64,000 bases of DNA from Patescibacteria group bacterium. Lineage in GTDB: Bacteria; Patescibacteriota; WWE3; UBA101185; UBA10185. Location: assembly GCA_016926555.1 (NCBI GenBank), contig JAFGOI010000004.1:168996-232995 (forward strand). The letters are read 5' to 3'. The translations under genes were made by a program, and so were the position numbers. Below, in pieces: positions 29,888-56,949 of the stretch (position 1 is its first letter; every line of letters begins with the position of its first letter). A model generated the notes under the pieces. The model saw nothing but the letters and a program-made list of their open reading frames with translations. It ran no database searches and was not told the origin of the DNA.

Positions 29888-29964
29888 GGGCTTGTAGCTC
29901 AGTTGGTTAGAGCGCTGTGTTCACATCGCAGAGGTCCCTGGTTCGAGTCCAGGCAAGCCCACCA
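29888..29964 (+). tRNA. tRNA-Val (anticodon CAC), CCA encoded
   Basis: Cloverleaf folded by hand. Acceptor GGGCTTG/CAAGCCC, D-arm GCTC/GAGC, anticodon stem CTGTG/CGCAG with loop TTCACAT, T-arm CCTGG-TTCGAGT-CCAGG, discriminator A plus CCA. Confidence 0.85.
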
Positions 29965-37258: not shown

Positions 37259-37333
37259 TGGAGCCAGAGGTGGGATTCGAACCCACGGCCTGACGTTTAC
37301 GATACGCCTGCTCTACCCCTGAGCTACTCTGGC
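37259..37333 (-). tRNA. tRNA-Thr (anticodon CGT), CCA encoded
   Basis: Reverse complement folds as GCCAGAG-TA-GCTC-AGGGGTA-GAGC-A-GGCGT-ATCGTAA-ACGTC-AGGCC-GTGGG-TTCGAAT-CCCAC-CTCTGGC-T-CCA. Confidence 0.85.
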
Positions 37334-37445: not shown

Positions 37446-37521
37446 ATGGAGCGAGTGACGGGTTTCGAACCCGCGACCTTCTGCTTGGGAAGCAGATGCT
37501 CTGCCAACTGAGCTACACTCG
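37446..37521 (-). tRNA. tRNA-Gly (anticodon CCC), CCA encoded
   Basis: Reverse complement folds as GCGAGTG-TA-GCTC-AGTTGGCA-GAGC-A-TCTGC-TTCCCAA-GCAGA-AGGTC-GCGGG-TTCGAAA-CCCGT-CACTCGC-T-CCA. Confidence 0.85.
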
Positions 37522-37631
37522 CTTGATTCAAAAAAAAACACAAGAAAATTATACAGCAATCCCCTCCCTCCCGAGTACTCGGGATCTGCGGAGGGGAACC
37601 GCTATCAGAGAAGTAATCAAGTTTATTAATA

Positions 37632-39548: not shown

Positions 39549-39625
39549 TGGCGGGACCGACGGGGCTCGAACCCGCGACCTCTTGCGTGACAGGCAAGCG
39601 CTCTAACCGACTGAGCTACGGCCCC
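39549..39625 (-). tRNA. tRNA-Asp (anticodon GTC), CCA encoded
   Basis: Reverse complement folds as GGGGCCG-TA-GCTC-AGTCGGTTA-GAGC-G-CTTGC-CTGTCAC-GCAAG-AGGTC-GCGGG-TTCGAGC-CCCGT-CGGTCCC-G-CCA. Confidence 0.85.
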
Positions 39626-40483: not shown

Positions 40484-42244
40484 GTGCCAAGTTTCTATGA
40501 TTTTTCCAATTCAGAAGTTGTTCAGCAGTTAAAAGAGGTTTTGGCCGCGATGCAGATTAAGGATGCGGACGCTTTTAGAATTAGGGCTTATGATAACGCG
40601 GTTACCGCATTAGATAACCTGACTGTTTCCATTAAAGATGTGTGGGAGGATGATCGATTGAACCAAATTCCCGGAATTGGTTCCAGTTTGGCGCAGCATT
40701 TAAATGAACTTTTTACGAAGGGTCGGGTTTCGGAATGGGAGAAGGTAAAGGAAAATCTTCCTGAAGGAATGTTTGGTTTAATTGGGCTAAGAGGGGTTGG
40801 TGCTAAGAAAGCTTATAAATTGGCAAGTGAGTTCCAGCTTAATTCCAAGGAAACCGCTATCGAAGAACTTAAGGATTACGCGGAAAAACAAGAAATTAGA
40901 GATCTTTCTGGATTCGGCGATAAATCTGAAAAAGATATCTTAGAAGCTATTGAACAATCGAAAATGACAAAAAGTGAGAAGCCCCGAATGTTGCTAATAC
41001 GAGCTGAAATCATCGCGGAAAGAATAAAAAAGCACATGAATTTGCTTGACTGCATTGAAAAAATGGAAGTTCTAGGGTCTTTTAGGAGGAGAAATCCAAC
41101 TGTGGGAGATTTGGATTTCGCTGTTGCTACAACAAAGACAAAAGAAGTGATAGACCATTTTCTTGAATTCCCGGAAATTTCCGAGATCTTAGCCCAAGGA
41201 GAAAATAAAGTCATGGTTGTTCTTTCAAATGATACGCAGGTTGATTTAAGAGTGTCTTCTCCCGAAGCGTATGGCGCGATGCTTCAATATAACACGGGGA
41301 ATGTGCAGCATAACATAATTCTTAGAACCCACGCGTTGGAAAAGGGATTATCTTTATCGGAATACGGAATAAAAGATAAAAAGACAAACAAAATAAAAGA
41401 ATTCGCTACAGAAGAAGAATTTTATGAATATTTAGGTCTGCAGTATATTCCACCTGAATTAAGGTACGGGCATAACGAAATAGAATTGGCTCGTGAAAAC
41501 AAAATTCCAAAATTAATAGATGTCAGTGATATTAAAGGTGATCTTCACACACATACGGTTTATTCTGATGGGCTGAATTCTGTTTCCGAGATGGCGGAGA
41601 CGGCTTTGTCTTTAGGATATGAGTATTATGGGATCACGGATCATTCTCCCAGCATTCAAAGTAGGGGAAGGGATGAGGTGGAAAAATTAATTTCGAGTCA
41701 GAAAGCCGAAATAGAGAGTTTTAATAAAAGTCAGAATAAGCTTAGGGTGCTTTTTGGTTATGAATTGAATATTCTTGTGAGTAATAAGTTGAGTCTCCCC
41801 GATGACATTCTGAAGGAACTAGATATTGTGGTTGCAGGGGTGCATTCCTCGTTTGAGCAAGACAAAAATACAATGACAAAAAGGCTTATTTCTGCCATTG
41901 AAAACGAATATGTCCATATTATCGCGCATCCATTGAATCGATTAATTAACGAAAGGAAGGCGGTTGATCTAAATTGGAATAAAGTGTTTGACTCCATAAA
42001 GGAGAATAATAAGGTGTTGGAGATCAATTCTCAGCCAAATAGACTTGACCTTTCGGATGATTTAGTGCGCGAGGCGGCTCAAAAAGGTATAAAGATGATT
42101 ATTGATACAGATGCGCATCAAACCTCGCAACTGTTATATATGAGATACGGAGTTGATGTTGCCAGGAGGGGTTGGTGCGAAAGAAAACATATTCTGAATA
42201 CTCTGCCAAGATCAGACTTCTTAAAAGAACTCGGGATTAAATAA
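40484..42244 (+). CDS. polX: Family X DNA polymerase with C-terminal PHP phosphoesterase domain (PolX)
   Basis: HhH N-domain. Pol-beta-like 'GSFRRRNPTVGDLDFAV'. PHP motifs 'DLHTHTVYSDG', 'ITDH' and 'DTDAHQ'. Confidence 0.85.
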   Translation: MPSFYDFSNSEVVQQLKEVLAAMQIKDADAFRIRAYDNAVTALDNLTVSIKDVWEDDRLNQIPGIGSSLAQHLNELFTKGRVSEWEKVKENLPEGMFGLIGLRGVGAKKAYKLASEFQLNSKETAIEELKDYAEKQEIRDLSGFGDKSEKDILEAIEQSKMTKSEKPRMLLIRAEIIAERIKKHMNLLDCIEKMEVLGSFRRRNPTVGDLDFAVATTKTKEVIDHFLEFPEISEILAQGENKVMVVLSNDTQVDLRVSSPEAYGAMLQYNTGNVQHNIILRTHALEKGLSLSEYGIKDKKTNKIKEFATEEEFYEYLGLQYIPPELRYGHNEIELARENKIPKLIDVSDIKGDLHTHTVYSDGLNSVSEMAETALSLGYEYYGITDHSPSIQSRGRDEVEKLISSQKAEIESFNKSQNKLRVLFGYELNILVSNKLSLPDDILKELDIVVAGVHSSFEQDKNTMTKRLISAIENEYVHIIAHPLNRLINERKAVDLNWNKVFDSIKENNKVLEINSQPNRLDLSDDLVREAAQKGIKMIIDTDAHQTSQLLYMRYGVDVARRGWCERKHILNTLPRSDFLKELGIK

Positions 42245-42335
42245 ATCTTATTTAAAACTCTCGGAATGCTGTATAATCAACTTGTTTGGTTGAAACTAAT
42301 TAAATTGGATTTCTTAGAAAATAGGAGGTGAAATT

Positions 42336-42911
42336 ATGTCTTTATTTACTGTGCTAATACTAGCTGTAGTTTTAGCAGGAATATATTTAATTACCATATA
42401 CAACGTCTTTGCGTCCCTGAAAATTAAGATAGGTGAAGCGTGGAGCCAGATTGATGTTCAACTTAAAAGAAGAACCGATCTGATACCTAATTTGGTTGAA
42501 ACAGTCAAGGGGTATGCCTCACATGAGAAGGAAGTTTTTGAGAATGTTACACAGGCAAGATCTGCTTTAATGTCGGCTCAGAACCCGAAAGAAGCCGGGG
42601 AGGCCGATAAAGCGCTAACCTCCGCTTTGGGAAGGCTTTTTGCTGTTGCTGAAAACTATCCGGTGCTTAAAGCTCAGGAAGGCTTCTTGAATTTGCAGAA
42701 AGAATTGAGTGATACTGAAGACAAAGTTGCTTATTCCAGACAGTTTTACAATAGCGTTGTAAGACAGTTTAATGAAAAGCTTGCGGTGTTTCCCAGCAAT
42801 TTAATTGGGAAGCTATTTGGCTATAAATCCGAGGAGTTTTTCGAAGCTGAGGAATCAGAAAGAAAAGCAGTTAAAGTTGATTTCTCTGATAAATCTGACA
42901 AAAAAGAATAG
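42336..42911 (+). CDS. lemA: LemA family protein
   Basis: N-terminal TM plus 'YNVFASLKIKIGEAWSQIDVQLKRRTDLIPNLVETVKGYASHEKEVFE'. Strong SD 'AGGAGGTGA' upstream. Confidence 0.85.
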   Translation: MSLFTVLILAVVLAGIYLITIYNVFASLKIKIGEAWSQIDVQLKRRTDLIPNLVETVKGYASHEKEVFENVTQARSALMSAQNPKEAGEADKALTSALGRLFAVAENYPVLKAQEGFLNLQKELSDTEDKVAYSRQFYNSVVRQFNEKLAVFPSNLIGKLFGYKSEEFFEAEESERKAVKVDFSDKSDKKE

Positions 42912-42929
42912 TTGTCTGCAAATTAGAAC

Positions 42930-43847
42930 ATGCCGAATATTTATCAACACATAGGTAAAAATAAGCGTGATACTTTTATTATTGTTGTGTTATTTATCGC
43001 TGTTATAAGTTTTATCGGATGGTTCATGGGTGAAATTTACATAGGTGGGGAGGGGTATTTTTTTGTCGGGTGGGCTTTGGTGTTGTCCGGTTTGTCGTCT
43101 TTCATCACTTATTATAATTCGGATAAGATCGTGTTGGCTATATCCGGCGCGACAGAAGTAAAGTATGAAGACGATCCCTACCTTCATAAATTAGTCGAAA
43201 ATATGACTATCGCTTCCGGTATTCCAACGCCGCGTATATATAAGATAGAGGATACCGCCATGAATGCTTTTGCCACAGGGAGAGATCCGGAACATAGTGT
43301 TATATGTTTTACAACGGGTATTGTGGATGGTTTGGAAAAGCGCGAATTAGAAGGAGTTATAGCCCATGAAATGTCACATATTGGAAATTATGATATTAGA
43401 TTAATGTCCATAGTAAGTGTGTTAGTAGGTTCTATACAGTTGCTGGCGGATTTCTTTACAAGAGGAAGGTTTTATAAAATGGGAGGGGGAAGAAGGTCTG
43501 GTTCTTCCAGAAGTGGCGGTCGAGTGGGGATGATTATTATGGTTCTTGGAATACTAATGCTTATTATCAGCCCTATAATTGCTACGTTGATCAAGATGGC
43601 TATTAGCAGAAAAAGGGAATACTTGGCTGATTCAACAGCGGCTTTAATTACACGTTATCCTCAGGGTTTGGCAAACGCTTTAAGAAAGCTGTCTAAGGAT
43701 AGGGAAATACTTGAGGCTGCAAATGGAGCTACTGCACATCTTTATATAGTTGCTCCTATCAAGGATAGTTTTGGTTTTACTATTATGACTGCTTTCAGCA
43801 CGCATCCTCCTATAGAAGATAGAATTGCGCGTCTTGAGAGTATGTAA
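42930..43847 (+). CDS. htpX: Zinc metalloprotease HtpX (M48)
   Basis: 'GVIAHEMSHIGNYD' HExxH and four TM helices. Confidence 0.85.
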   Translation: MPNIYQHIGKNKRDTFIIVVLFIAVISFIGWFMGEIYIGGEGYFFVGWALVLSGLSSFITYYNSDKIVLAISGATEVKYEDDPYLHKLVENMTIASGIPTPRIYKIEDTAMNAFATGRDPEHSVICFTTGIVDGLEKRELEGVIAHEMSHIGNYDIRLMSIVSVLVGSIQLLADFFTRGRFYKMGGGRRSGSSRSGGRVGMIIMVLGILMLIISPIIATLIKMAISRKREYLADSTAALITRYPQGLANALRKLSKDREILEAANGATAHLYIVAPIKDSFGFTIMTAFSTHPPIEDRIARLESM

Positions 43848-44190
43848 GTATGAGATTGAGTATATATTGATGCTAAGGTATTATGTGTCCATGAAAGCAA
43901 TTTCGAAAGAACAAGTAAAACGCATCGCAGAGCTGGCGAAATTAAATGTTTCCGGTGAAGAGGAAGAATTTTCCGAGATCCTTAGTGACACAATAGATTA
44001 TATTAACGTTTTAGGGGAGCTTGATGTTTTTGATACGAAGCCCACCTGTCAGGTTACCGGTCTTAAGAATGTTTATCAGGAAGGGGATAAGCAGAAGGCC
44101 ACTTTGTCACAAAAAGATGCCCTATCAAACGCCAGTGAGGTAATAGACGGATTATTCGCAACCGATGCGGTTTTTGAAAGAGATATATGA
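43825..44190 (+). CDS. gatC: Asp/Glu-tRNA amidotransferase subunit C (GatC)
   Basis: 'ISKEQVKRIAELAKLNVSGEEEEFSEILSDTIDYINVLGELD'. The likely true start is an internal Met around 43888. Confidence 0.8.
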   Translation: MRVLRVCKYEIEYILMLRYYVSMKAISKEQVKRIAELAKLNVSGEEEEFSEILSDTIDYINVLGELDVFDTKPTCQVTGLKNVYQEGDKQKATLSQKDALSNASEVIDGLFATDAVFERDI

Positions 44191-45617
44191 GTGGATTAAA
44201 CAAATTCAGCCTTGCAGAATCTAGGGAGCTTTTAAAAAAGGGGGAGATATCCAGCGAAGATTTGGTTAGGGCGTGTTTAGAACAGATAGAAGTTTATGAT
44301 CCGAAAATAAAGGCCTTTGTTACAGTGTTAGAGGATAAAGCTTTAAGACAGGCAAAAAGGGCTGATAATCTAATAAAAAAACGAGGCAAGGAGGTGTTTG
44401 ATGAAAAACCTCTTCTTGGGATACCATATGCGGCTAAAGATAACTTTTCAACTAGAGGAGTACTTACCACATCTTCGTCCAATATGCTTGATAATTATAT
44501 TCCCCCATTTGACGCAACCGTAATAAAAAGGTTAAACGAAGCCGGTGCTATTCTTATTGGAAAAACAAACATGGATGCCTTTGCTCATGGCGCTTCAACT
44601 GAAGCGTCTGATTTCTTTACTACTAAAAACCCCTGGGATACTGATAAGGTTGCGGGTGGTTCATCGGGAGGCTCCGCTGCCGCAGTAGGATCTGATATGT
44701 GTGTTTTTGCAGTTGGGAGTGAAACCGGAGGAAGTATTAGGGGGCCCGCATCTTGGTGTGGGGTTGTCGGGTTTAAACCAAGTTATGGAAGAGTATCTAG
44801 ATATGGTGTAACTGCCATGGCCTCATCGACGGATTCTCCTGGTCCGATCACTAAAACTGTTAAAGATGCCGCCATAGTATTGGGTATTATTGCAGGTAAA
44901 GATCCTTTTGACGCTACAACATCCCCTGTGCAAGTGCCAAATTATTTGTCCGGCAGTGAAGAAATTGATGTGAAAGGTTTAAAAATCGGGAAACCACGAT
45001 CGTATTTTGAGGTGGGTCTTGATGAGCCAATTAGGAAATGTGTTGAGAGTGGTTTGAAAGAGCTTGGAAAGCAAGGCGCGGAAATTGTGGACGTAGACCT
45101 TTTAGATCCGAAATACTCAATTTCTGTGTACACAATTCTTCAGAGATCGGAAGTGTCATCAAATCTCGGCAGACTTGACGGGATAAGGTACGGTAACACA
45201 CGGGACCATTTTGGTAAGGAAGCAAAGAAAAGGATAATGCTAGGTACGTATACGTTGAGTTCCGGTTATTATGATGAATACTATGGAAAGGCTCAGAAAG
45301 TACGTACTTTGATAATAGATGATTTCAATAAAGTGCTGGAAAGAGTGAATTTTATATGTGGTCCTACGATGCCATGCACAGCCATGGATATTGGTGCGAT
45401 AGATACTTCTCCTTTGTTTGGGGAATTGATAGACTTACTAAATGAACCTAGTAGTATCGCTGGGTTACCCGGTGTGACTATTCCGTGTGGTTATGTTAAG
45501 GATCTTCCGGTGGGAATTCAGTTTATAGGAAGAATGATGGGTGAAAAGACAATTTTAAATGTTTCTCATAGATTTCAACAAGTAACAAATTATCACAAAG
45601 AAAGGCCAAATCTATGA
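44187..45617 (+). CDS. gatA: Asp/Glu-tRNA amidotransferase subunit A (GatA)
   Basis: Amidase signature 'GGSSGGSAAAVG' with the Ser-cisSer-Lys triad context. ATGA overlap with gatC. Confidence 0.92.
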   Translation: MSGLNKFSLAESRELLKKGEISSEDLVRACLEQIEVYDPKIKAFVTVLEDKALRQAKRADNLIKKRGKEVFDEKPLLGIPYAAKDNFSTRGVLTTSSSNMLDNYIPPFDATVIKRLNEAGAILIGKTNMDAFAHGASTEASDFFTTKNPWDTDKVAGGSSGGSAAAVGSDMCVFAVGSETGGSIRGPASWCGVVGFKPSYGRVSRYGVTAMASSTDSPGPITKTVKDAAIVLGIIAGKDPFDATTSPVQVPNYLSGSEEIDVKGLKIGKPRSYFEVGLDEPIRKCVESGLKELGKQGAEIVDVDLLDPKYSISVYTILQRSEVSSNLGRLDGIRYGNTRDHFGKEAKKRIMLGTYTLSSGYYDEYYGKAQKVRTLIIDDFNKVLERVNFICGPTMPCTAMDIGAIDTSPLFGELIDLLNEPSSIAGLPGVTIPCGYVKDLPVGIQFIGRMMGEKTILNVSHRFQQVTNYHKERPNL

Positions 45618-45817
45618 ATACTCGCGCACTTTTACCTGTAATAGTATTTATCTTGATGCTCGGTTTAGCTATAGTGGCGGGGAATTTTGTTATCGCCAAA
45701 ATAATACACATCCCGTTGGATAAAGCACCGTTCTTTTTGAAGGCAATCGTCCATGGAGTAGCGTTAGGAGGTGTATTTTATGTTGGCGCGAAGTACTTTG
45801 GGAGTAAAATGGGATGA
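45614..45817 (+). CDS. Hypothetical 67-aa two-TM membrane peptide
   Basis: Hydrophobic 'LLPVIVFILMLGLAIVAGNFVIAKII' and 'AIVHGVALGGVFYVGA'. ATGA overlap with the gatA stop. Confidence 0.4.
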   Translation: MNTRALLPVIVFILMLGLAIVAGNFVIAKIIHIPLDKAPFFLKAIVHGVALGGVFYVGAKYFGSKMG

Positions 45818-46200
45818 ATTTATTTTGGTGGCTCTCTCCTAAGAAGAAAAGAGCCATAGTAAAAGGTGAGACTTTAGATTCAGTCAGGAGAGAATGGAGT
45901 GAAATTAAAATATTGCTTGCCCAAGGTAGTCCTAGCCAGTTGAAACAGGCCTTGATTGCAGCCGATAAGACTGTAGATACGGTGTTAAAAGATATTATTG
46001 AGGGGGATACAATGGGTGAAAGATTAAGGAATGCTAGGGATAAATTCGATGACAGAGATACGTACCAAGGTATATGGGATGCACATAAAATGAGGAATGC
46101 TTTAGTGCACGAATCAGGCTTTGAGCTTACCCATTTCTCCCTTAAGAAGGGTGTTGAAAAGCTGAAAGAAGGTTTGAAGGCTTTAGGAATAGCTGTATGA
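45814..46200 (+). CDS. HEPN-domain protein, HepT/DUF86-like (Rx4H motif)
   Basis: 128 aa, predicted all-alpha. Carries 'GIWDAHKMRNALVHESGF', i.e. a W-x6-R-N-x3-H-E arrangement. ATGA overlaps with both the upstream peptide and gatB. Confidence 0.4.
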   Translation: MNLFWWLSPKKKRAIVKGETLDSVRREWSEIKILLAQGSPSQLKQALIAADKTVDTVLKDIIEGDTMGERLRNARDKFDDRDTYQGIWDAHKMRNALVHESGFELTHFSLKKGVEKLKEGLKALGIAV

Positions 46201-47534
46201 ATGAGACCGATAAAGAAAATATATTAGGTGAATACAAGTTGGTGCTTGGTTTGGAAATACACGCACATGCGAAGACCGAGAATAAAATGTTTTGCGGCTG
46301 TAGCGCGGATATATGGAAAGCCGAGCCAAACTCCCATACTTGTCCCACGTGTCTTGGGTTGCCGGGAGCGTTGCCTGTTCCGAACCTGGAAGCAATTAAA
46401 AAGACCCAAAAACTCGGTATAGCACTTAATTGTGAGATAAACAGAGATTCCCGTTTTGATAGGAAGCATTACTTCTATCCGGATTTACCGAAGGGATTTC
46501 AGATTAGTCAGTACAAGCAGCCGTTATGCATAAATGGATGGTTAGAACTGGATTCCGGCAATAATGCGGATATAGAGAGGATACATTTAGAGGAGGATAC
46601 GGCAAAGTCTTTTCATAAGAAGGGGAAAACTCTTATTGATTTCAATAAGTCCGGAGTTCCGCTGATTGAGTTAGTTACTAGACCATGCTTTACATCTGCG
46701 GAAGATGCGGTGGATTTTTCTAAGAAGTTTCACACCATTTTAAGATATTTAGATGTAAGTGATGCCGACATGGAAAAGGGGCAGTTTAGAATTGAGCCTA
46801 ATATCTCCCTTCGTACTCCTGAAATGGAAGAAAAAAACGAGCTTCCTAATTATAAGGTGGAGGTTAAGAACATTAATTCTTTTAAATTTATGGAGAAAGC
46901 AGTGCGGGCGGAAATGAAACGTCAGCGTGAACTTTTAGATAAAGGGGAAACTCCTGTTCAAGAAAACAGGGGATATAACGAATATACAGGGAAGACCGAT
47001 CCGCAAAGATCAAAGGAAGAAGCGCATGATTATAGATATTTTCCGGAGCCGGATATTCCGCCAATGGAATTCGATACTGAATATATGGAAGATTTAGTAA
47101 AAGGTTTGCCTGAATTGCCGGGGCAGATAATTACTAGATTAACTAAAACACATGGAGTGCCGGAAAGTATAGCCAAAACGTTAGTTGAGAAATTTGGAAA
47201 AGAATATGTATCTAGGTTTGATTCTATTGTGTCTTTAGGTCTATCAGGAGATAAAGTAGCGAGTTTATTGGTTAATAGAAAGGAATATCAGGAGTTATCC
47301 TCGGAGGAGTTTAAGAAAAGATTAGAAGATGATGAAAAGACGATAGATACCGATTTAAAGCCAATTGTGGCAGAAGTGCTAAAGGAAAATCCGCAAGCTT
47401 TACGGGATTACAAAAAAGGGAAGGAAAATGCAGCTCAATTCCTACTTGGCATGGTAATGAGAAAAACAAAAGGGCAGGCTAACGCTGCGCAAGTACAGGA
47501 ATTGCTGCTGAAGGAAATTAAAGAACAAATGTAG
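46197..47534 (+). CDS. gatB: Asp/Glu-tRNA amidotransferase subunit B (GatB)
   Basis: 'YKLVLGLEIHAHAKTENKMFCGCS...HTCPTCLGLPGALPVPN'. Length typical of GatB. Confidence 0.92.
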   Translation: MNETDKENILGEYKLVLGLEIHAHAKTENKMFCGCSADIWKAEPNSHTCPTCLGLPGALPVPNLEAIKKTQKLGIALNCEINRDSRFDRKHYFYPDLPKGFQISQYKQPLCINGWLELDSGNNADIERIHLEEDTAKSFHKKGKTLIDFNKSGVPLIELVTRPCFTSAEDAVDFSKKFHTILRYLDVSDADMEKGQFRIEPNISLRTPEMEEKNELPNYKVEVKNINSFKFMEKAVRAEMKRQRELLDKGETPVQENRGYNEYTGKTDPQRSKEEAHDYRYFPEPDIPPMEFDTEYMEDLVKGLPELPGQIITRLTKTHGVPESIAKTLVEKFGKEYVSRFDSIVSLGLSGDKVASLLVNRKEYQELSSEEFKKRLEDDEKTIDTDLKPIVAEVLKENPQALRDYKKGKENAAQFLLGMVMRKTKGQANAAQVQELLLKEIKEQM

Positions 47535-47580
47535 ATTTGTGTAACTAACACACCGATTAGTTTACTGATATATTACAATT

Positions 47581-49428
47581 ATGGATTTGAAATTTGATCC
47601 GGACAACCCGAAATATGAATACGTAACCTCATTGGATCAGGCAAACGTTGCGTTAGAAGCATTGGAGAAAGAGCGCGTTGTGGGTGTGGACGTAGAAGCT
47701 AATTCTTTAGACCCGTTTTCGATTATCTTGTTTACAGTTCAGATCGGAACTCCAACCATTTCATATATTTTTGATGCCAGGAAGTTGGATCTGGAGAAAT
47801 TCGAAAGATTCAAGAGCTTGCTTGAAAATCCAAAAACTACAAAGCTTCTTATGAATGCGAAATATGATTACAAGGTACTAAAAGCTCAGCTAGGAATTAA
47901 TATGCGGAATTTGTACGATGTAATGCTTGCTGAGCTCGTCTTAAATGCAGGGATAGGAAGAAAATTTTATAGTCTCAAATATTTAGCCAGTAAATATGTT
48001 CAGGTAATTATGGATAAGGACACCAGAGATAAGTTTATAAAAATGACAAAAAGATCAAATTTATCGGAAGATCTCTTAAGGTATGGAGCTATGGATACAT
48101 TAGTATTATTTCCGATTTTTGAGCAACAGATAGTGAAATTAAAGGAAGAAAAGCTTATTAATGTGGCAAAATTAGAGTTTGCTGCAGTGAGAGTTGTCGG
48201 TGACATGGAACTTAGAGGAATATACATTGATAGTAAAAGATGGAAAGATATTATTAAAAACCTTGAGGACAAAAGAAATATCTATGCGGTACAGTTTCAG
48301 GAGATTATTCGTCCTTATTACAACTATAAGTTAGTCGATTTGTTTGGGAATGTGGGCAATGCGATTAACATAAACAGTCAGACGCAGTTAATGGACCTTT
48401 TTAATAACCGTTTGAATTTTAACATTCCTTCTACGGGAGACTCAATTTTATCGACGGTTGATCACCCCGTAGCTGAAGTGTTGAGGAACTACAGAAAGTA
48501 TGAGAAATTGGTTTCCGCTTTTGGTATTAGCTTACTGGCTAAACTTCATCCCAAGACAAAGAGGTTTCATCCAGAGTTTAACCAAATGGGAACTGCAACT
48601 GGAAGATTTTCCTGTAATAATCCAAATTTACAGCAAATACCGAGAAACACGGAAGAGGCACCTTTTAGGGAGTGTTTCAATCCGGCGAAGGGATATAAGC
48701 TCGTAACCGCGGACTATTCATCTTTTGAAATGAGGATTCTGGCGGAACTCTCAAATGATGCCAAGATGCTAAAGGCTTTAAACGAGGGTTTAGACATACA
48801 CTCCTATACGGCTTCTCTAATGTTTAATAAGCCTTATTCAGCGGATTTTAAAAATAAATATCCGGATTTACGGCAAATAGCTAAACCGATAGGATTCGGT
48901 TTGATGTACGGAATGGGTCCTATAGGTTTGGTAAGCACGTTAGAAATGCAGACGGGTACGGTTATTAGCAAGGATATCGCGGAGGATTATATGGAGAAGT
49001 ATTTCGCCAGTTATCCCAGTGTTCGGGATTTTCTGGAGACTACAGCTAAAAGGGCAGTCCAGCGGGGATGGAGTATGACGCCCGCCGGGAGAAAACGATG
49101 GTTTAATATACCTGATAAAGATGATCCCGATTACAGAAGAAAAATAGCGCAAATAATGAGAGAAGCGAAAAATCATCCGATTCAGGGTACAAATGCTGAC
49201 GCTATAAAATTTGCCCTTGTGTATATTTCGGACAGATTGGAAAAAGAAGGTGTCGATGGCGGGATAACTCATACGGTGCATGACGAAATAGTATGTGAAA
49301 TAAGGGAAGATCAGGCAGAAGACTGGGCGTTGATCCAATCAGAGGAAATGGTGAGAGCGGCAGAGTTATTTATAAGTAAGGTGGAAGTTACATCAGAGCC
49401 TTTCGTCGGGGATGTTTGGGAGCACTAG
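47581..49428 (+). CDS. polA: Family A DNA polymerase (3'-5' exonuclease + polymerase domains, no 5'-nuclease domain)
   Basis: Exo motif 'VGVDVEAN'. Polymerase motifs 'MGTATGRFSCNNPNLQQIP', 'DYSSFEMRILAELS' and 'HDEIVCE'. 615 aa. Confidence 0.8.
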   Translation: MDLKFDPDNPKYEYVTSLDQANVALEALEKERVVGVDVEANSLDPFSIILFTVQIGTPTISYIFDARKLDLEKFERFKSLLENPKTTKLLMNAKYDYKVLKAQLGINMRNLYDVMLAELVLNAGIGRKFYSLKYLASKYVQVIMDKDTRDKFIKMTKRSNLSEDLLRYGAMDTLVLFPIFEQQIVKLKEEKLINVAKLEFAAVRVVGDMELRGIYIDSKRWKDIIKNLEDKRNIYAVQFQEIIRPYYNYKLVDLFGNVGNAININSQTQLMDLFNNRLNFNIPSTGDSILSTVDHPVAEVLRNYRKYEKLVSAFGISLLAKLHPKTKRFHPEFNQMGTATGRFSCNNPNLQQIPRNTEEAPFRECFNPAKGYKLVTADYSSFEMRILAELSNDAKMLKALNEGLDIHSYTASLMFNKPYSADFKNKYPDLRQIAKPIGFGLMYGMGPIGLVSTLEMQTGTVISKDIAEDYMEKYFASYPSVRDFLETTAKRAVQRGWSMTPAGRKRWFNIPDKDDPDYRRKIAQIMREAKNHPIQGTNADAIKFALVYISDRLEKEGVDGGITHTVHDEIVCEIREDQAEDWALIQSEEMVRAAELFISKVEVTSEPFVGDVWEH

Positions 49429-49475
49429 ACGTATCACTCATTGACTTGAAGTGCTAATTTGCTAGAATATTTCTT

Positions 49476-51575
49476 ATGGTAATGTGTCATAGATGCGGGC
49501 AAAGGCCCGCGAAATACTCTCTTAATAAAGTCGTTGACGGTAAGCAGGTGTATTTAGCTTTGTGTGAGGTATGTTATAGCGCAGTGATGAAAGAGACTTC
49601 CAGCGCAGCAGATAAACTTGATAAGTTCGGTCGGGATTTAACGGAAATGGCAAAGGAAGGCAAATTGGATCCTGTAATTGGAAGAGCGGATGAGATCGAG
49701 AGGGTAATTCATATACTATCCCGAAGAACAAAAAATAATCCGGTTTTAATAGGTGACCCCGGGGTTGGAAAAACAGCTATTGTTGAAGGTTTGGCACAAA
49801 AAATAGTAGCTGGGCAGGTTCCTGAGCCTCTTAGAAATAAGAGGGTATTTGCTCTAGATCTTGCTTCTATTGTCGCTGGAACATCTCATAGAGGTATGTT
49901 TGAGAAACGCCTAAAGGAAATTATTGTGGAGGTAGTTAAAGCAAAAGGGCAGATTATATTGTTCGTCGATGAGCTTCATACAGTTGTAGGGGCTGGGAGT
50001 GCAGAAGGTTCCATGGATGCAGCGAATATACTAAAGCCCGCACTATCCAGAGGGGAACTTCAAATGGTGGGCGCTACTACAATAGATGAGTACAGAAAAT
50101 ATATTGAAAAGGATGCGGCTCTGGAAAGAAGGTTTCAGCAGATTATGGTAAACGAACCTACAACTGAGGATACAATAGAGATACTAAAAGGGTTGCGAGA
50201 GAGATATGAGAAGCATCACAATGTGCGAATTCTAGATGGTGCCATTGAAACAGCCGTTAAGATGAGTGATAGATATATAAGTGATAGATTTCTTCCTGAT
50301 AAAGCTATAGATATTGTTGATGAAGCTTGTGCGTTGGTGAGATTATCTCAGGTAAAAGAGCCTGAAAACCTGAAGAAGGTAGAGGAGGAAATAAATGAGA
50401 TTAAAGATAAACTTCGGGATAAAGATATCAAAGATGAGCAAAGATCAGATTACACGCAAAAATTAGTAGATTTGGAAAAAGTAAAAGGAGAGTTAACAGA
50501 AATCTGGACCCGGACAAAACTTGAGGAAGTTCACGATGTTACTGAGAATCATATTATGCGAGTTGTTTCAAGAGCAACCGGCATACCTTTGGATAAATTG
50601 AGTGTAGCTGAACGTGAGCGTTTATTACATCTAGAAGACAAAATAAAGGAAAGAATTGTCGGTCAAGATGAAGCGGTGCATGTACTCTCTGACGCTATAA
50701 GAAGAGCTAGAGCAGGTTTGAAAGACCCCAAGAGGCCAATTGGATCCTTTTTGTTTTTAGGTCCCACGGGAGTCGGTAAAACTGAATTAGCAAAGACATT
50801 AGCCGAAGCATTATACGGAGATGAAGATATGATAATTCGTTTAGATATGAGTGAGTTTATGGAGAAACACTCTGTTGCTAAGTTAATAGGAGCGCCTCCG
50901 GGATATATTGGTTTTGATCAGGGAGGACAGTTAACGGAAGTTGTTAGAAGAAAACCGTTCTCCGTAATTCTGCTTGATGAAATTGAGAAGGCCCACCCAG
51001 ATACGTTTAATTCTCTTCTACAAATAATGGAAGATGGAAGATTGACAGATAGCAAGGGTAGAACTGTAGATTTTAAAAATACAATTCTGGTACTAACGTC
51101 AAATGTTGGTTCAGAGTTGCTGAGAAAGCAAAATATAGGCTTTGGCGATAATAAAGAAAAATCAAAAGATACTTCGAGAGAGGAGTTTGAGAGAAGGATT
51201 AGGGATTTGTTGAAAGAATCATTTAGACCGGAGTTTCTAAATAGACTGGATGAGGTCATAATATTTACAAGTTTGACGGAAGAGGATGTTGAGGAAATAG
51301 CCAGGAGGTTTGTTGAAAAGGTTAAAGAACTTCTCCAAGAGCAAAAAATCTCCATTAACGTGACTCAGAAGGTGATTAAGCAATTAGCCAAAGAGGGTTT
51401 TAGTTATGAATACGGTGCGCGTCCCCTCAGGAGGCTGATTCAAAAAGAATTGGATAATGTGCTATCCGAAATGCTGATAAAAGGGGAATTAGGTGAGGGG
51501 GATAATGTAAGTGTCAAAGTAGTAGATGGAAAGGTTTCCATTGAAGTTAACGAACCAGTCGAAGTAAAAAAGTAA
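49476..51575 (+). CDS. Clp/Hsp100 ATPase, ClpE/ClpC-like (N-terminal zinc ribbon, two AAA+ modules, ClpP-binding IGF loop)
   Basis: 'CHRCGQ...CEVCYS' zinc ribbon. '[15 protein letters not shown]' and '[12 protein letters not shown]' Walker A motifs. 'NIGFGD' P-loop tripeptide. Short coiled-coil M-domain. Confidence 0.8.
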
Positions 51576-56874: not shown

Positions 56875-56949
56875 TGGTGGGGGTGGAGGGGATCGAACCC
56901 TCGACACATAGCTTAAAAGGCTACTGCTCTACCACTGAGCTACACCCCC
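56875..56949 (-). tRNA. tRNA-Lys (anticodon TTT), CCA encoded
   Basis: Reverse complement folds as GGGGGTG-TA-GCTC-AGTGGTA-GAGC-A-GTAGC-CTTTTAA-GCTAT-GTGTC-GAGGG-TTCGATC-CCCTC-CACCCCC-A-CCA. Confidence 0.85.

Follow-up and report, generated by a model that had tools for sequence, protein, structure and literature searches.

A conserved HEPN-fold protein encoded between gatA and gatB in the gat operon of Patescibacteria

What is a small protein with a HEPN-type motif doing in the operon for the GatCAB amidotransferase? This question is raised by a 64,000-nucleotide (nt) stretch of DNA from a Patescibacteria group bacterium of the WWE3 lineage (GenBank assembly GCA_016926555.1, contig JAFGOI010000004.1, positions 168,996 to 232,995 of the forward strand), hereafter the window, in which two small genes lie between gatA and gatB, one for a 67-amino acid (aa) membrane peptide and one for a 128-aa protein that we call X. 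An earlier note made from the sequence alone had read X as an orphan HepT (DUF86) HEPN protein inserted into the operon, with the peptide as its partner, or alternatively as a HEPN domesticated for a part in tRNA metabolism. We conclude that X has the HEPN fold, with its Rx4H site intact, and is an ancient, conserved and translationally coupled member of the Patescibacteria gat operon, and that it is not a HepT protein, part of a toxin-antitoxin (TA) module or a recent insertion. In the window it is the first example of a large uncharacterised family, an extra, vertically inherited cistron of gatC-gatA-X-gatB throughout the Patescibacteria (Candidate Phyla Radiation, CPR).

An AlphaFold2 model of X built from a 36-sequence alignment had a mean predicted local distance difference test score (pLDDT) of 93.4 and a predicted template modelling score (pTM) of 0.84, with helices at residues 18–37, 40–61, 67–73 (short), 81–99 and 107–123. 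Foldseek searches with this model agreed on HEPN at a probability of ~1 with TM-scores of 0.59–0.66 and E-values >0.05, and a sequence search of the PDB with X gave no match to any solved structure. The string GIWDAHKMRNALVHESGF singled out in the earlier note corresponds to residues 86–103 of X, with W88, R94, N95, H99 and E100 as claimed, and carries a catalytic-type Rx4H motif (W88-D-A-H91-K92-M-R94-N95-A-L-V-H99-E100; window 46075–46113, on the forward strand like the other located features of this operon) at the end of helix 3. Residues W88, H91, R94, N95 and H99 do not vary among 67 diverse members of the X family, and the pattern WxxH[KR]xR[NDHST]xxxH was found in 226 of the 227 family sequences collected. 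Helix 2 contributes D51-K-T-V-D55 (45964–45978), whose two aspartates are conserved in at least 90% of sequences and are the acidic residues expected to face the HEPN site.

HEPN domains canonically carry Rx4-6H at the end of helix 3 or the start of the helix 3–helix 4 loop, with a polar residue after the arginine and a conserved acidic residue in helix 2, and the insert between helices 2 and 3 is usually poorly conserved (PMC3710099). X has an Rx4H that closes helix 3, an asparagine as the polar residue next to the arginine, and an acidic residue in helix 2; because these positions match the canonical description, we place it in the HEPN superfamily, its catalytic-type site apparently intact, and the HEPN fold itself is almost certain. 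Unlike in the usual HEPN domain, the insert of X (residues 62–80) holds a near-invariant motif, GETMGERLK in the family and GDTMGERLR in X (46003–46029), of which G64, M67, G68, E69 and R70 are invariant in alignment A1 and G64, R70 and L71 are conserved in at least 90% of sequences in alignment A2. By dimerising, HEPN domains form a composite site that binds and cleaves RNA without the help of metal. X is somewhat more likely than not a catalytically active RNase. A kinship with ribosomal protein bS20, raised by PDB sequence and profile matches (E 0.024 and 0.005), was rejected since the fold search was unambiguous for HEPN. The bS20 match is recurrent and non-significant, spans family-profile positions ~25–90 (window 45886–46083) and extends to one member that matched Pfam Ribosomal_S20p at E 0.014; it is probably a helical-hairpin similarity only.

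The assignment to HepT did not fare as well as the fold. X of the window had no Pfam or NCBIfam match and no match to any HEPN family at E≤1, DUF86 and DUF4145 (PF13643) included, and when the 67 members were compared with Pfam the recurrent matches were only sub-threshold, to HEPN families: Swt1-like HEPN in nine (best E 0.015) and RiboL-PSP-HEPN in four (best E for these two families 0.015–0.019), and further Cthe_2314 HEPN and pEK499_p136 HEPN. HepT/DUF86 and classical HEPN were absent among the 25 most-matched of the 70 Pfam families returned for these members, and DUF4145 was absent among the families listed for them; 'DUF4145 domain-containing protein', which some members bear, is an automatic UniRef/ProtNLM label only. 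PADLOC and PHROGs gave matches to X only at E≥0.01, some of them centred on the motif region, and neither X nor the 67-aa peptide had a match above threshold in Pfam, NCBIfam, PADLOC or PHROGs. Taken together, the sub-threshold Pfam and PADLOC matches of the family go mostly to HEPN modules. The tyrosine of the HepT motif Rx4HxY is indeed replaced, as the earlier note had it (H99-E100-S101 in the window); the residue two after the motif histidine is S, A, T, P or V across the family and never a conserved tyrosine. It was also right that no minimal nucleotidyltransferase (MNT) antitoxin adjoins X, which holds at all loci examined. Of the original 'HepT (DUF86) HEPN' reading, therefore, the HEPN fold and its canonical Rx4H site stand and membership of HepT/DUF86 falls.

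How widespread is the arrangement? A sequence search returned 80 close homologues of X, and the family extends to 2,846 clusters (50% identity) at E≤1e-3, 2,063 of them at E≤1e-10, when 1.84 billion representatives were scanned in full with a HMMER profile, and to at least 4,329 clusters at E≤1e-5 in a profile search of 90% clusters. Its members are named 'hypothetical' or, automatically, 'DUF4145 domain-containing protein', with no functional name among them, and X of the window is identical to a hypothetical protein of a metagenome-assembled genome (MAG) named 'Patescibacteria group bacterium'. All taxon-named homologues are from Patescibacteria (WWE3, Saccharibacteria/Saccharimonadia, Berkelbacteria, Nealsonbacteria, Uhrbacteria and WS5), save one on a probably chimeric contig labelled Methylophilaceae. 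On that contig (L065:3878-4477) a 199-aa open reading frame (ORF) into which a fragment of X is fused, its middle being 53% identical to X, lies at the contig end beside ligA; this sole X copy away from gat genes, on a contig with smc-like, zipA-like and ligA genes, was set aside as a probable assembly chimera.

Gene order was compared in 88 loci (L numbers) and the window, a sample of 89 sequences with a few duplicates: L001 and L021 come from one contig, and the members of L002/L003/L058 and of L004/L005 are near-identical to each other. In 87 of the 89, X is encoded downstream of gatA, and gatB follows X in 85; two loci, L070 and L079, have no gatB in the fetched flank. At 66 loci X begins no more than 150 nt from gatA, and at 61 it ends no more than 150 nt from gatB. 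The gatCA-X-B order is kept where the outer genes differ, the WWE3 arrangement being polX-lemA-htpX-gatCA-X-B-polA-clpB and that of Saccharibacteria an EPSP-synthase-type gene, gatCA-X-B and an NTP-transferase gene. The earlier note had allowed that the same arrangement might turn out to be widely conserved as a known gatCAB accessory subunit; the wide conservation was found, but not the known subunit.

The interval between gatA and gatB holds further genes in some lineages. At L010 (L010:2196-3959) a bacterial-type aspartyl-tRNA synthetase (AspRS; tRNA-synt_2 E 7e-118, OB and GAD domains) lies between gatA and X, giving gatC-gatA-aspS-X-gatB, and since AspRS makes Asp-tRNAAsn this locus joins the substrate-making enzyme to the amidotransferase genes and X. 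A cyclophilin peptidyl-prolyl isomerase (PPIase) occupies the same place at L086:2666-3415 (WS5), L087:2778-3500 and L088:2887-3498. Many WWE3 loci (L032, L037–L040, L042, L045, L050 and L052) have an extra gene of ~700 bp between X and gatB, which in those inspected (L032, L037–L040) encodes a ~232-aa short-chain dehydrogenase/reductase (SDR; adh_short E 4e-49 at L037), the others being judged by gap size. A ~90-aa protein with a single transmembrane (TM) segment and no family match is encoded between X and gatB at L015:4381-4650, L016:2123-2398 and L035:4336-4632. We also noted three more ORFs at L086, two unannotated ones (155 aa and 164 aa) separating X from gatB and one of 286 aa separating gatC from gatA.

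The inheritance of X follows that of its neighbours. Across 71 loci the pairwise-identity matrices correlated with rho 0.80 for X versus GatA, 0.81 for X versus GatB and 0.80 for GatA versus GatB, none of 499 Mantel permutations reached the observed correlation, and mean pairwise identity was 0.47 for X, 0.53 for GatA and 0.49 for GatB. Matching matrices of this kind indicate that X has been inherited vertically with the amidotransferase genes under about equal constraint, the opposite of a mobile toxin, and, as measured by these identities, X keeps pace with GatA and GatB and follows their tree. The description of X as an orphan inserted into the operon is thus overturned: the gatA-X-gatB order is conserved across WWE3, Saccharimonadia, Berkelbacteria, Nealsonbacteria, Uhrbacteria and WS5, and X co-diverges with GatA and GatB, which together exclude the mobile TA reading. 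That X is a conserved gat-operon member and not a TA module is very likely indeed.

In the window itself the genes are packed tightly. gatC (43891–44190; 99 aa from the ATG at 43891; Pfam GatC E 7.6e-09), for which the longest ORF starts at a TTG at 43825 and runs into the upstream htpX-like gene, is followed by gatA (44187–45617; 476 aa; Pfam Amidase E 7.5e-128, full length), the peptide gene (45614–45817), X (45814–46200) and gatB (46197–47534; 445 aa; Pfam GatB_N E 2.9e-104, GatB_Yqey E 1.1e-17). The ORFs and the 4-nt ATGA overlaps reported earlier for the gatA/peptide, peptide/X and X/gatB junctions were recovered, the gatC/gatA junction is likewise ATGA, and a purine-rich, Shine-Dalgarno-like stretch lies 6–14 nt upstream at each of the four. 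When genes were called roughly across the window by longest ORF (63 ORFs, 95% coding), a procedure sensitive to start-codon choice, 45 pairs of same-strand neighbours were obtained, and 4-nt overlaps were seen at these four junctions only: four of four pairs in the gat operon against none of 41 elsewhere (~7e-6, hypergeometric count). The tight coupling therefore belongs to the gat operon and not to the genome generally. Consecutive ATGA overlaps bear out the proposed translational coupling with gatCAB, and by its gene arrangement X is coupled in this way to the amidotransferase subunits. The GC content of the two small genes (~0.40) equals that of the flanking gatA and gatB, so there is no sign of recent acquisition. 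A promoter and terminator scan of 42.2–47.7 kb gave counts equal to the shuffled expectation and was uninformative on operon boundaries.

The idea that X compensates for a missing Gat domain was rejected, as no consistent correlation was seen and the lengths of GatC (99 aa) and GatA (476 aa) are unremarkable. In WWE3, GatB measures 433–445 aa, whereas the full-length GatB of two other groups with X, Saccharibacteria and WS5, has 472–509 aa, and the GatB_Yqey match of the window protein covers profile positions 92–148 only; we take WWE3 GatB to be ~30 aa shorter than expected for a bacterial GatB.

Where in the cell would X act? An N-terminal TM segment was found in 85 of 147 X-family representatives, and most of the others have Trp/Phe-rich hydrophobic N-termini (e.g. 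IGILKGLWWLISLPFR). TM-bearing members have a mean of 0.46 Lys plus Arg residues before the TM helix versus 4.0 in the 15 residues after it, a skew that by the positive-inside rule places the HEPN domain in the cytoplasm. WWE3-type X proteins, that of the window included, have a short hydrophobic-then-basic N-terminus only, which in X is MNLFWWLSPKKKR (45814–45852; pLDDT ~61), at the position of the TM helix in most non-WWE3 homologues. This segment is presumed to contact the membrane, which would set X on its cytoplasmic face.

The 67-aa peptide has a TM segment at approximately residues 5–29 and a second, only moderately hydrophobic one at ~40–58. Two-TM ORFs of 60–67 aa between gatA and X, in two sequence subtypes, were found in the window and at 10 other WWE3-type loci (L015, L016, L017, L028, L032, L035, L037, L039, L042 and L043; 60–65 aa); one subtype has a GN(F/L)...PPFLK...H pattern in common with the window peptide, which is 38% identical to the L037 peptide by tblastn. 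The earlier proposal that the peptide is the partner of X does not generalise, as the peptide is confined to a WWE3 subclade and elsewhere X has its own TM or hydrophobic N-terminus. From its position, the separately encoded two-TM peptide may replace the TM anchor of X in the subclade of the window. By their conservation both small ORFs are real genes, given the X homologues (80 close ones and at least 4,329 clusters) and the peptide homologues at 10 other loci.

Published transposon sequencing (Tn-seq) of the Saccharibacterium Southlakia epibionticum may bear on the importance of the family. There SEML1_0535, a 420-bp gene for a 139-aa 'hypothetical protein', lies between GatA (SEML1_0536) and GatB (SEML1_0534), is flagged 'core family' and 'Patescibacteria enriched' according to the families of Meheust et al. 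2019, and has hidden Markov model (HMM) calls of GD/GD/ES; its normalised reads drop from 126.6 through 5.9 to 2.8 (PMC10633639, Table S1). Its ProtNLM label is 'DUF4145 domain-containing protein' (0.98), and its DPAM domain at residues 26–135 is assigned to the ECOD group 'Nucleotidyltransferase substrate binding subunit/domain', e1wtyA1 (PMC10633639, Table S2); the main text of that paper (Cell 2023) does not discuss SEML1_0535, HEPN or DUF4145. SEML1_0535 is like the X family in position, length and fold, many Saccharibacteria members being 139 aa long. We take the ECOD group e1wtyA1 to be the HEPN fold. A search of the cluster-member names of the X family did not find SEML1_0535, only proteins of Saccharibacteria MAGs. 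The X-family gene may be essential.

What, then, might X do? The evidence favours what the earlier note had offered as its second alternative, a domesticated HEPN with a putative role in tRNA metabolism. Patescibacteria generally depend on GatCAB for Gln-tRNA and Asn-tRNA. We lean, if only slightly, towards X being a membrane-tethered HEPN partner of GatCAB or the tRNA pathway, through a functional or a physical link; that tRNA is its target seems to us slightly less likely than not. X would on this account be a housekeeping partner of tRNA-dependent transamidation, not the toxin of a TA pair. Its N-terminal TM helix would hold it at the membrane in most lineages, where the HEPN site would engage the tRNA substrates or products of GatCAB (Glu-tRNAGln, Asp-tRNAAsn). 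It could do so as a fourth subunit tethering the amidotransferase or transamidosome, or as a nuclease removing tRNA that escapes amidation. A more specific form gives Patescibacteria a GatCAB holoenzyme or transamidosome of their own, with X as its fourth, stoichiometric subunit that anchors it to the membrane and whose HEPN site cleaves or holds back unamidated Glu-tRNAGln and Asp-tRNAAsn; this we consider unlikely. Several points weigh against a transamidation role. Operon position alone is no proof of physical association, and the interval tolerates passengers, PPIase, SDR and small TM genes also lying inside the operon in some lineages. Harm is to be expected from a HEPN RNase that is expressed constitutively and without regulation, so that X may catalyse only in a very restricted way or not at all. 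The depletion of SEML1_0535 could be a polar effect on gatB, and that gene is tied to the X family by position, length and fold, not by sequence. An interaction between the 67-aa peptide and X is suggested purely by their adjacency.

The same membrane association could serve a broader purpose. X might be a general housekeeping, membrane-tethered endoribonuclease for bulk mRNA and rRNA turnover or processing, for which TM-anchored RNase Y and amphipathic-helix-anchored RNase E are functional analogues, its position in the gat operon being a frozen accident that gives constitutive expression. The intact and invariant HEPN motif, the near-universal N-terminal TM or hydrophobic segment with a cytoplasmic domain, the Patescibacteria-wide, core distribution of the family and the unrelated PPIase and SDR genes that ride in the same gatA-gatB interval would all suit such an enzyme. 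A frozen accident sits less well with the persistence of X between gatA and gatB where everything outside the operon has been reshuffled, and with junctions that are unusually tight for this genome; the co-divergence of X with GatA and GatB, as tight as that of GatA with GatB, also speaks against it, yet is expected of any vertically inherited core gene. We regard a general RNase as rather unlikely.

If cleavage is doubted, X could be a non-nucleolytic structural or adaptor subunit whose HEPN domain binds a nucleotide, the aminoacyl-CCA end or a Gat subunit and thereby anchors or regulates GatCAB at the membrane. HEPN domains that only bind usually lose the Rx4H residues, however, whereas R94, N95, H99, W88 and H91 of X are invariant across a divergence of more than 30% in identity, and a pure adaptor seems quite improbable. 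Least credible, to the point of being nearly dismissed, is the reading from which the question arose, an orphan HepT-like HEPN toxin of a type II or VII TA or defence-like system, with the 67-aa peptide as partner, inserted in gatCAB. Beside the lack of a HepT/DUF86 Pfam match, of the tyrosine AMPylation site and of an MNT at any locus, it is opposed by the absence of the peptide from most loci, by vertical, superphylum-wide, single-locus inheritance at the evolutionary rate of GatA and GatB, by the lack of any compositional anomaly and by defence and phage library matches that are sub-threshold only. The preferred reading thus remains a membrane-tethered housekeeping partner of the amidotransferase pathway.

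Databases list the family solely as a Patescibacteria-enriched core family without a name, and a supplementary table is the one place where its HEPN nature appears. As far as we found, its superphylum-wide residence in gatCAB, its membrane anchoring and the split-anchor variant have no earlier description; we regard the family as a new one among HEPN proteins, set in a housekeeping context that is also new. Patescibacteria account for much of bacterial diversity, and many of their essential lineage-specific genes lack a known function. A HEPN RNase-type protein that has stayed in the operon across the radiation, is probably membrane-tethered and has a putative counterpart depleted in the only Tn-seq dataset available points to a component of their translation and tRNA machinery that has gone undescribed. 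Small bacterial HEPN proteins are usually seen as modules of conflict or as toxins, a view that X would alter. Were the more specific fourth-subunit form true, it would represent a new kind of quality control of tRNA mischarging, and X would, so far as we know, be the first HEPN nuclease with an essential housekeeping function to be described in a bacterium. Saccharibacteria, being genetically tractable, offer a direct test of the hypothesis.

The wider surroundings of the operon may be noted separately. A polX(PHP)-lemA-htpX(M48)-gatC-gatA-(X)-gatB-polA-clpB-like neighbourhood (window 40484–51575) is kept in the WWE3 relatives L001–L003. Within it, polA encodes 615 aa, with 3′-5′ exonuclease and polymerase domains only according to the annotation of relatives, and the Clp ATPase (699 aa; 49476–51575) has a Cys-rich CxxC...CxxC segment at its start. 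The window has five tRNA genes, Val-CAC (29888–29964), Thr-CGT (37259–37333), Gly-CCC (37447–37522), Asp-GTC (39549–39625) and Lys-TTT (56875–56949), and besides these Rfam at gathering thresholds gave no RNA family in the window.

How does X compare with known systems? HepT of the HepT-MntA type VII TA system (DUF86/PF01934; Shewanella SO_3166, PDB 5yep) has a profile that X does not match. X has E-S after H99 in place of x-Y, so that the AMPylation site is missing, has no MNT neighbour, and is in contrast non-mobile, membrane-associated and resident in a housekeeping operon across a whole superphylum. UPF0332/classical HEPN proteins (AF0298, PDB 2hsb; TT1696; ST0689) are, as far as we know, MNT-associated and cytosolic; they show 9% identity to X and no profile match, and X differs in its conserved helix 2–helix 3 insert and membrane anchor. 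Swt1-like HEPN (PF18731), RiboL-PSP-HEPN (PF18735) and DUF4145-type proteins are like the X family by weak sequence matches and presumably share with X a 'Gxx(L/M)GE+L' helix followed by 'RN..xH'. The matches of family members to them are nevertheless far below gathering thresholds, X of the window matches none, and their domain contexts (PIN fusions, restriction enzymes) are unrelated to that of X. Las1, the HEPN nuclease of Las1-Grc3 pre-rRNA processing, is eukaryotic and has other partners and another substrate. On the amidotransferase side, we know of no description of a fourth subunit of bacterial GatCAB; our literature search returned no paper combining GatCAB with HEPN, and its sole match for GatCAB with CPR was a Tn-seq review. 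GatC, which is present here as usual, and GatF of the yeast mitochondrial GatFAB are not HEPN proteins, but like X they are small proteins encoded or assembled with GatA and GatB.

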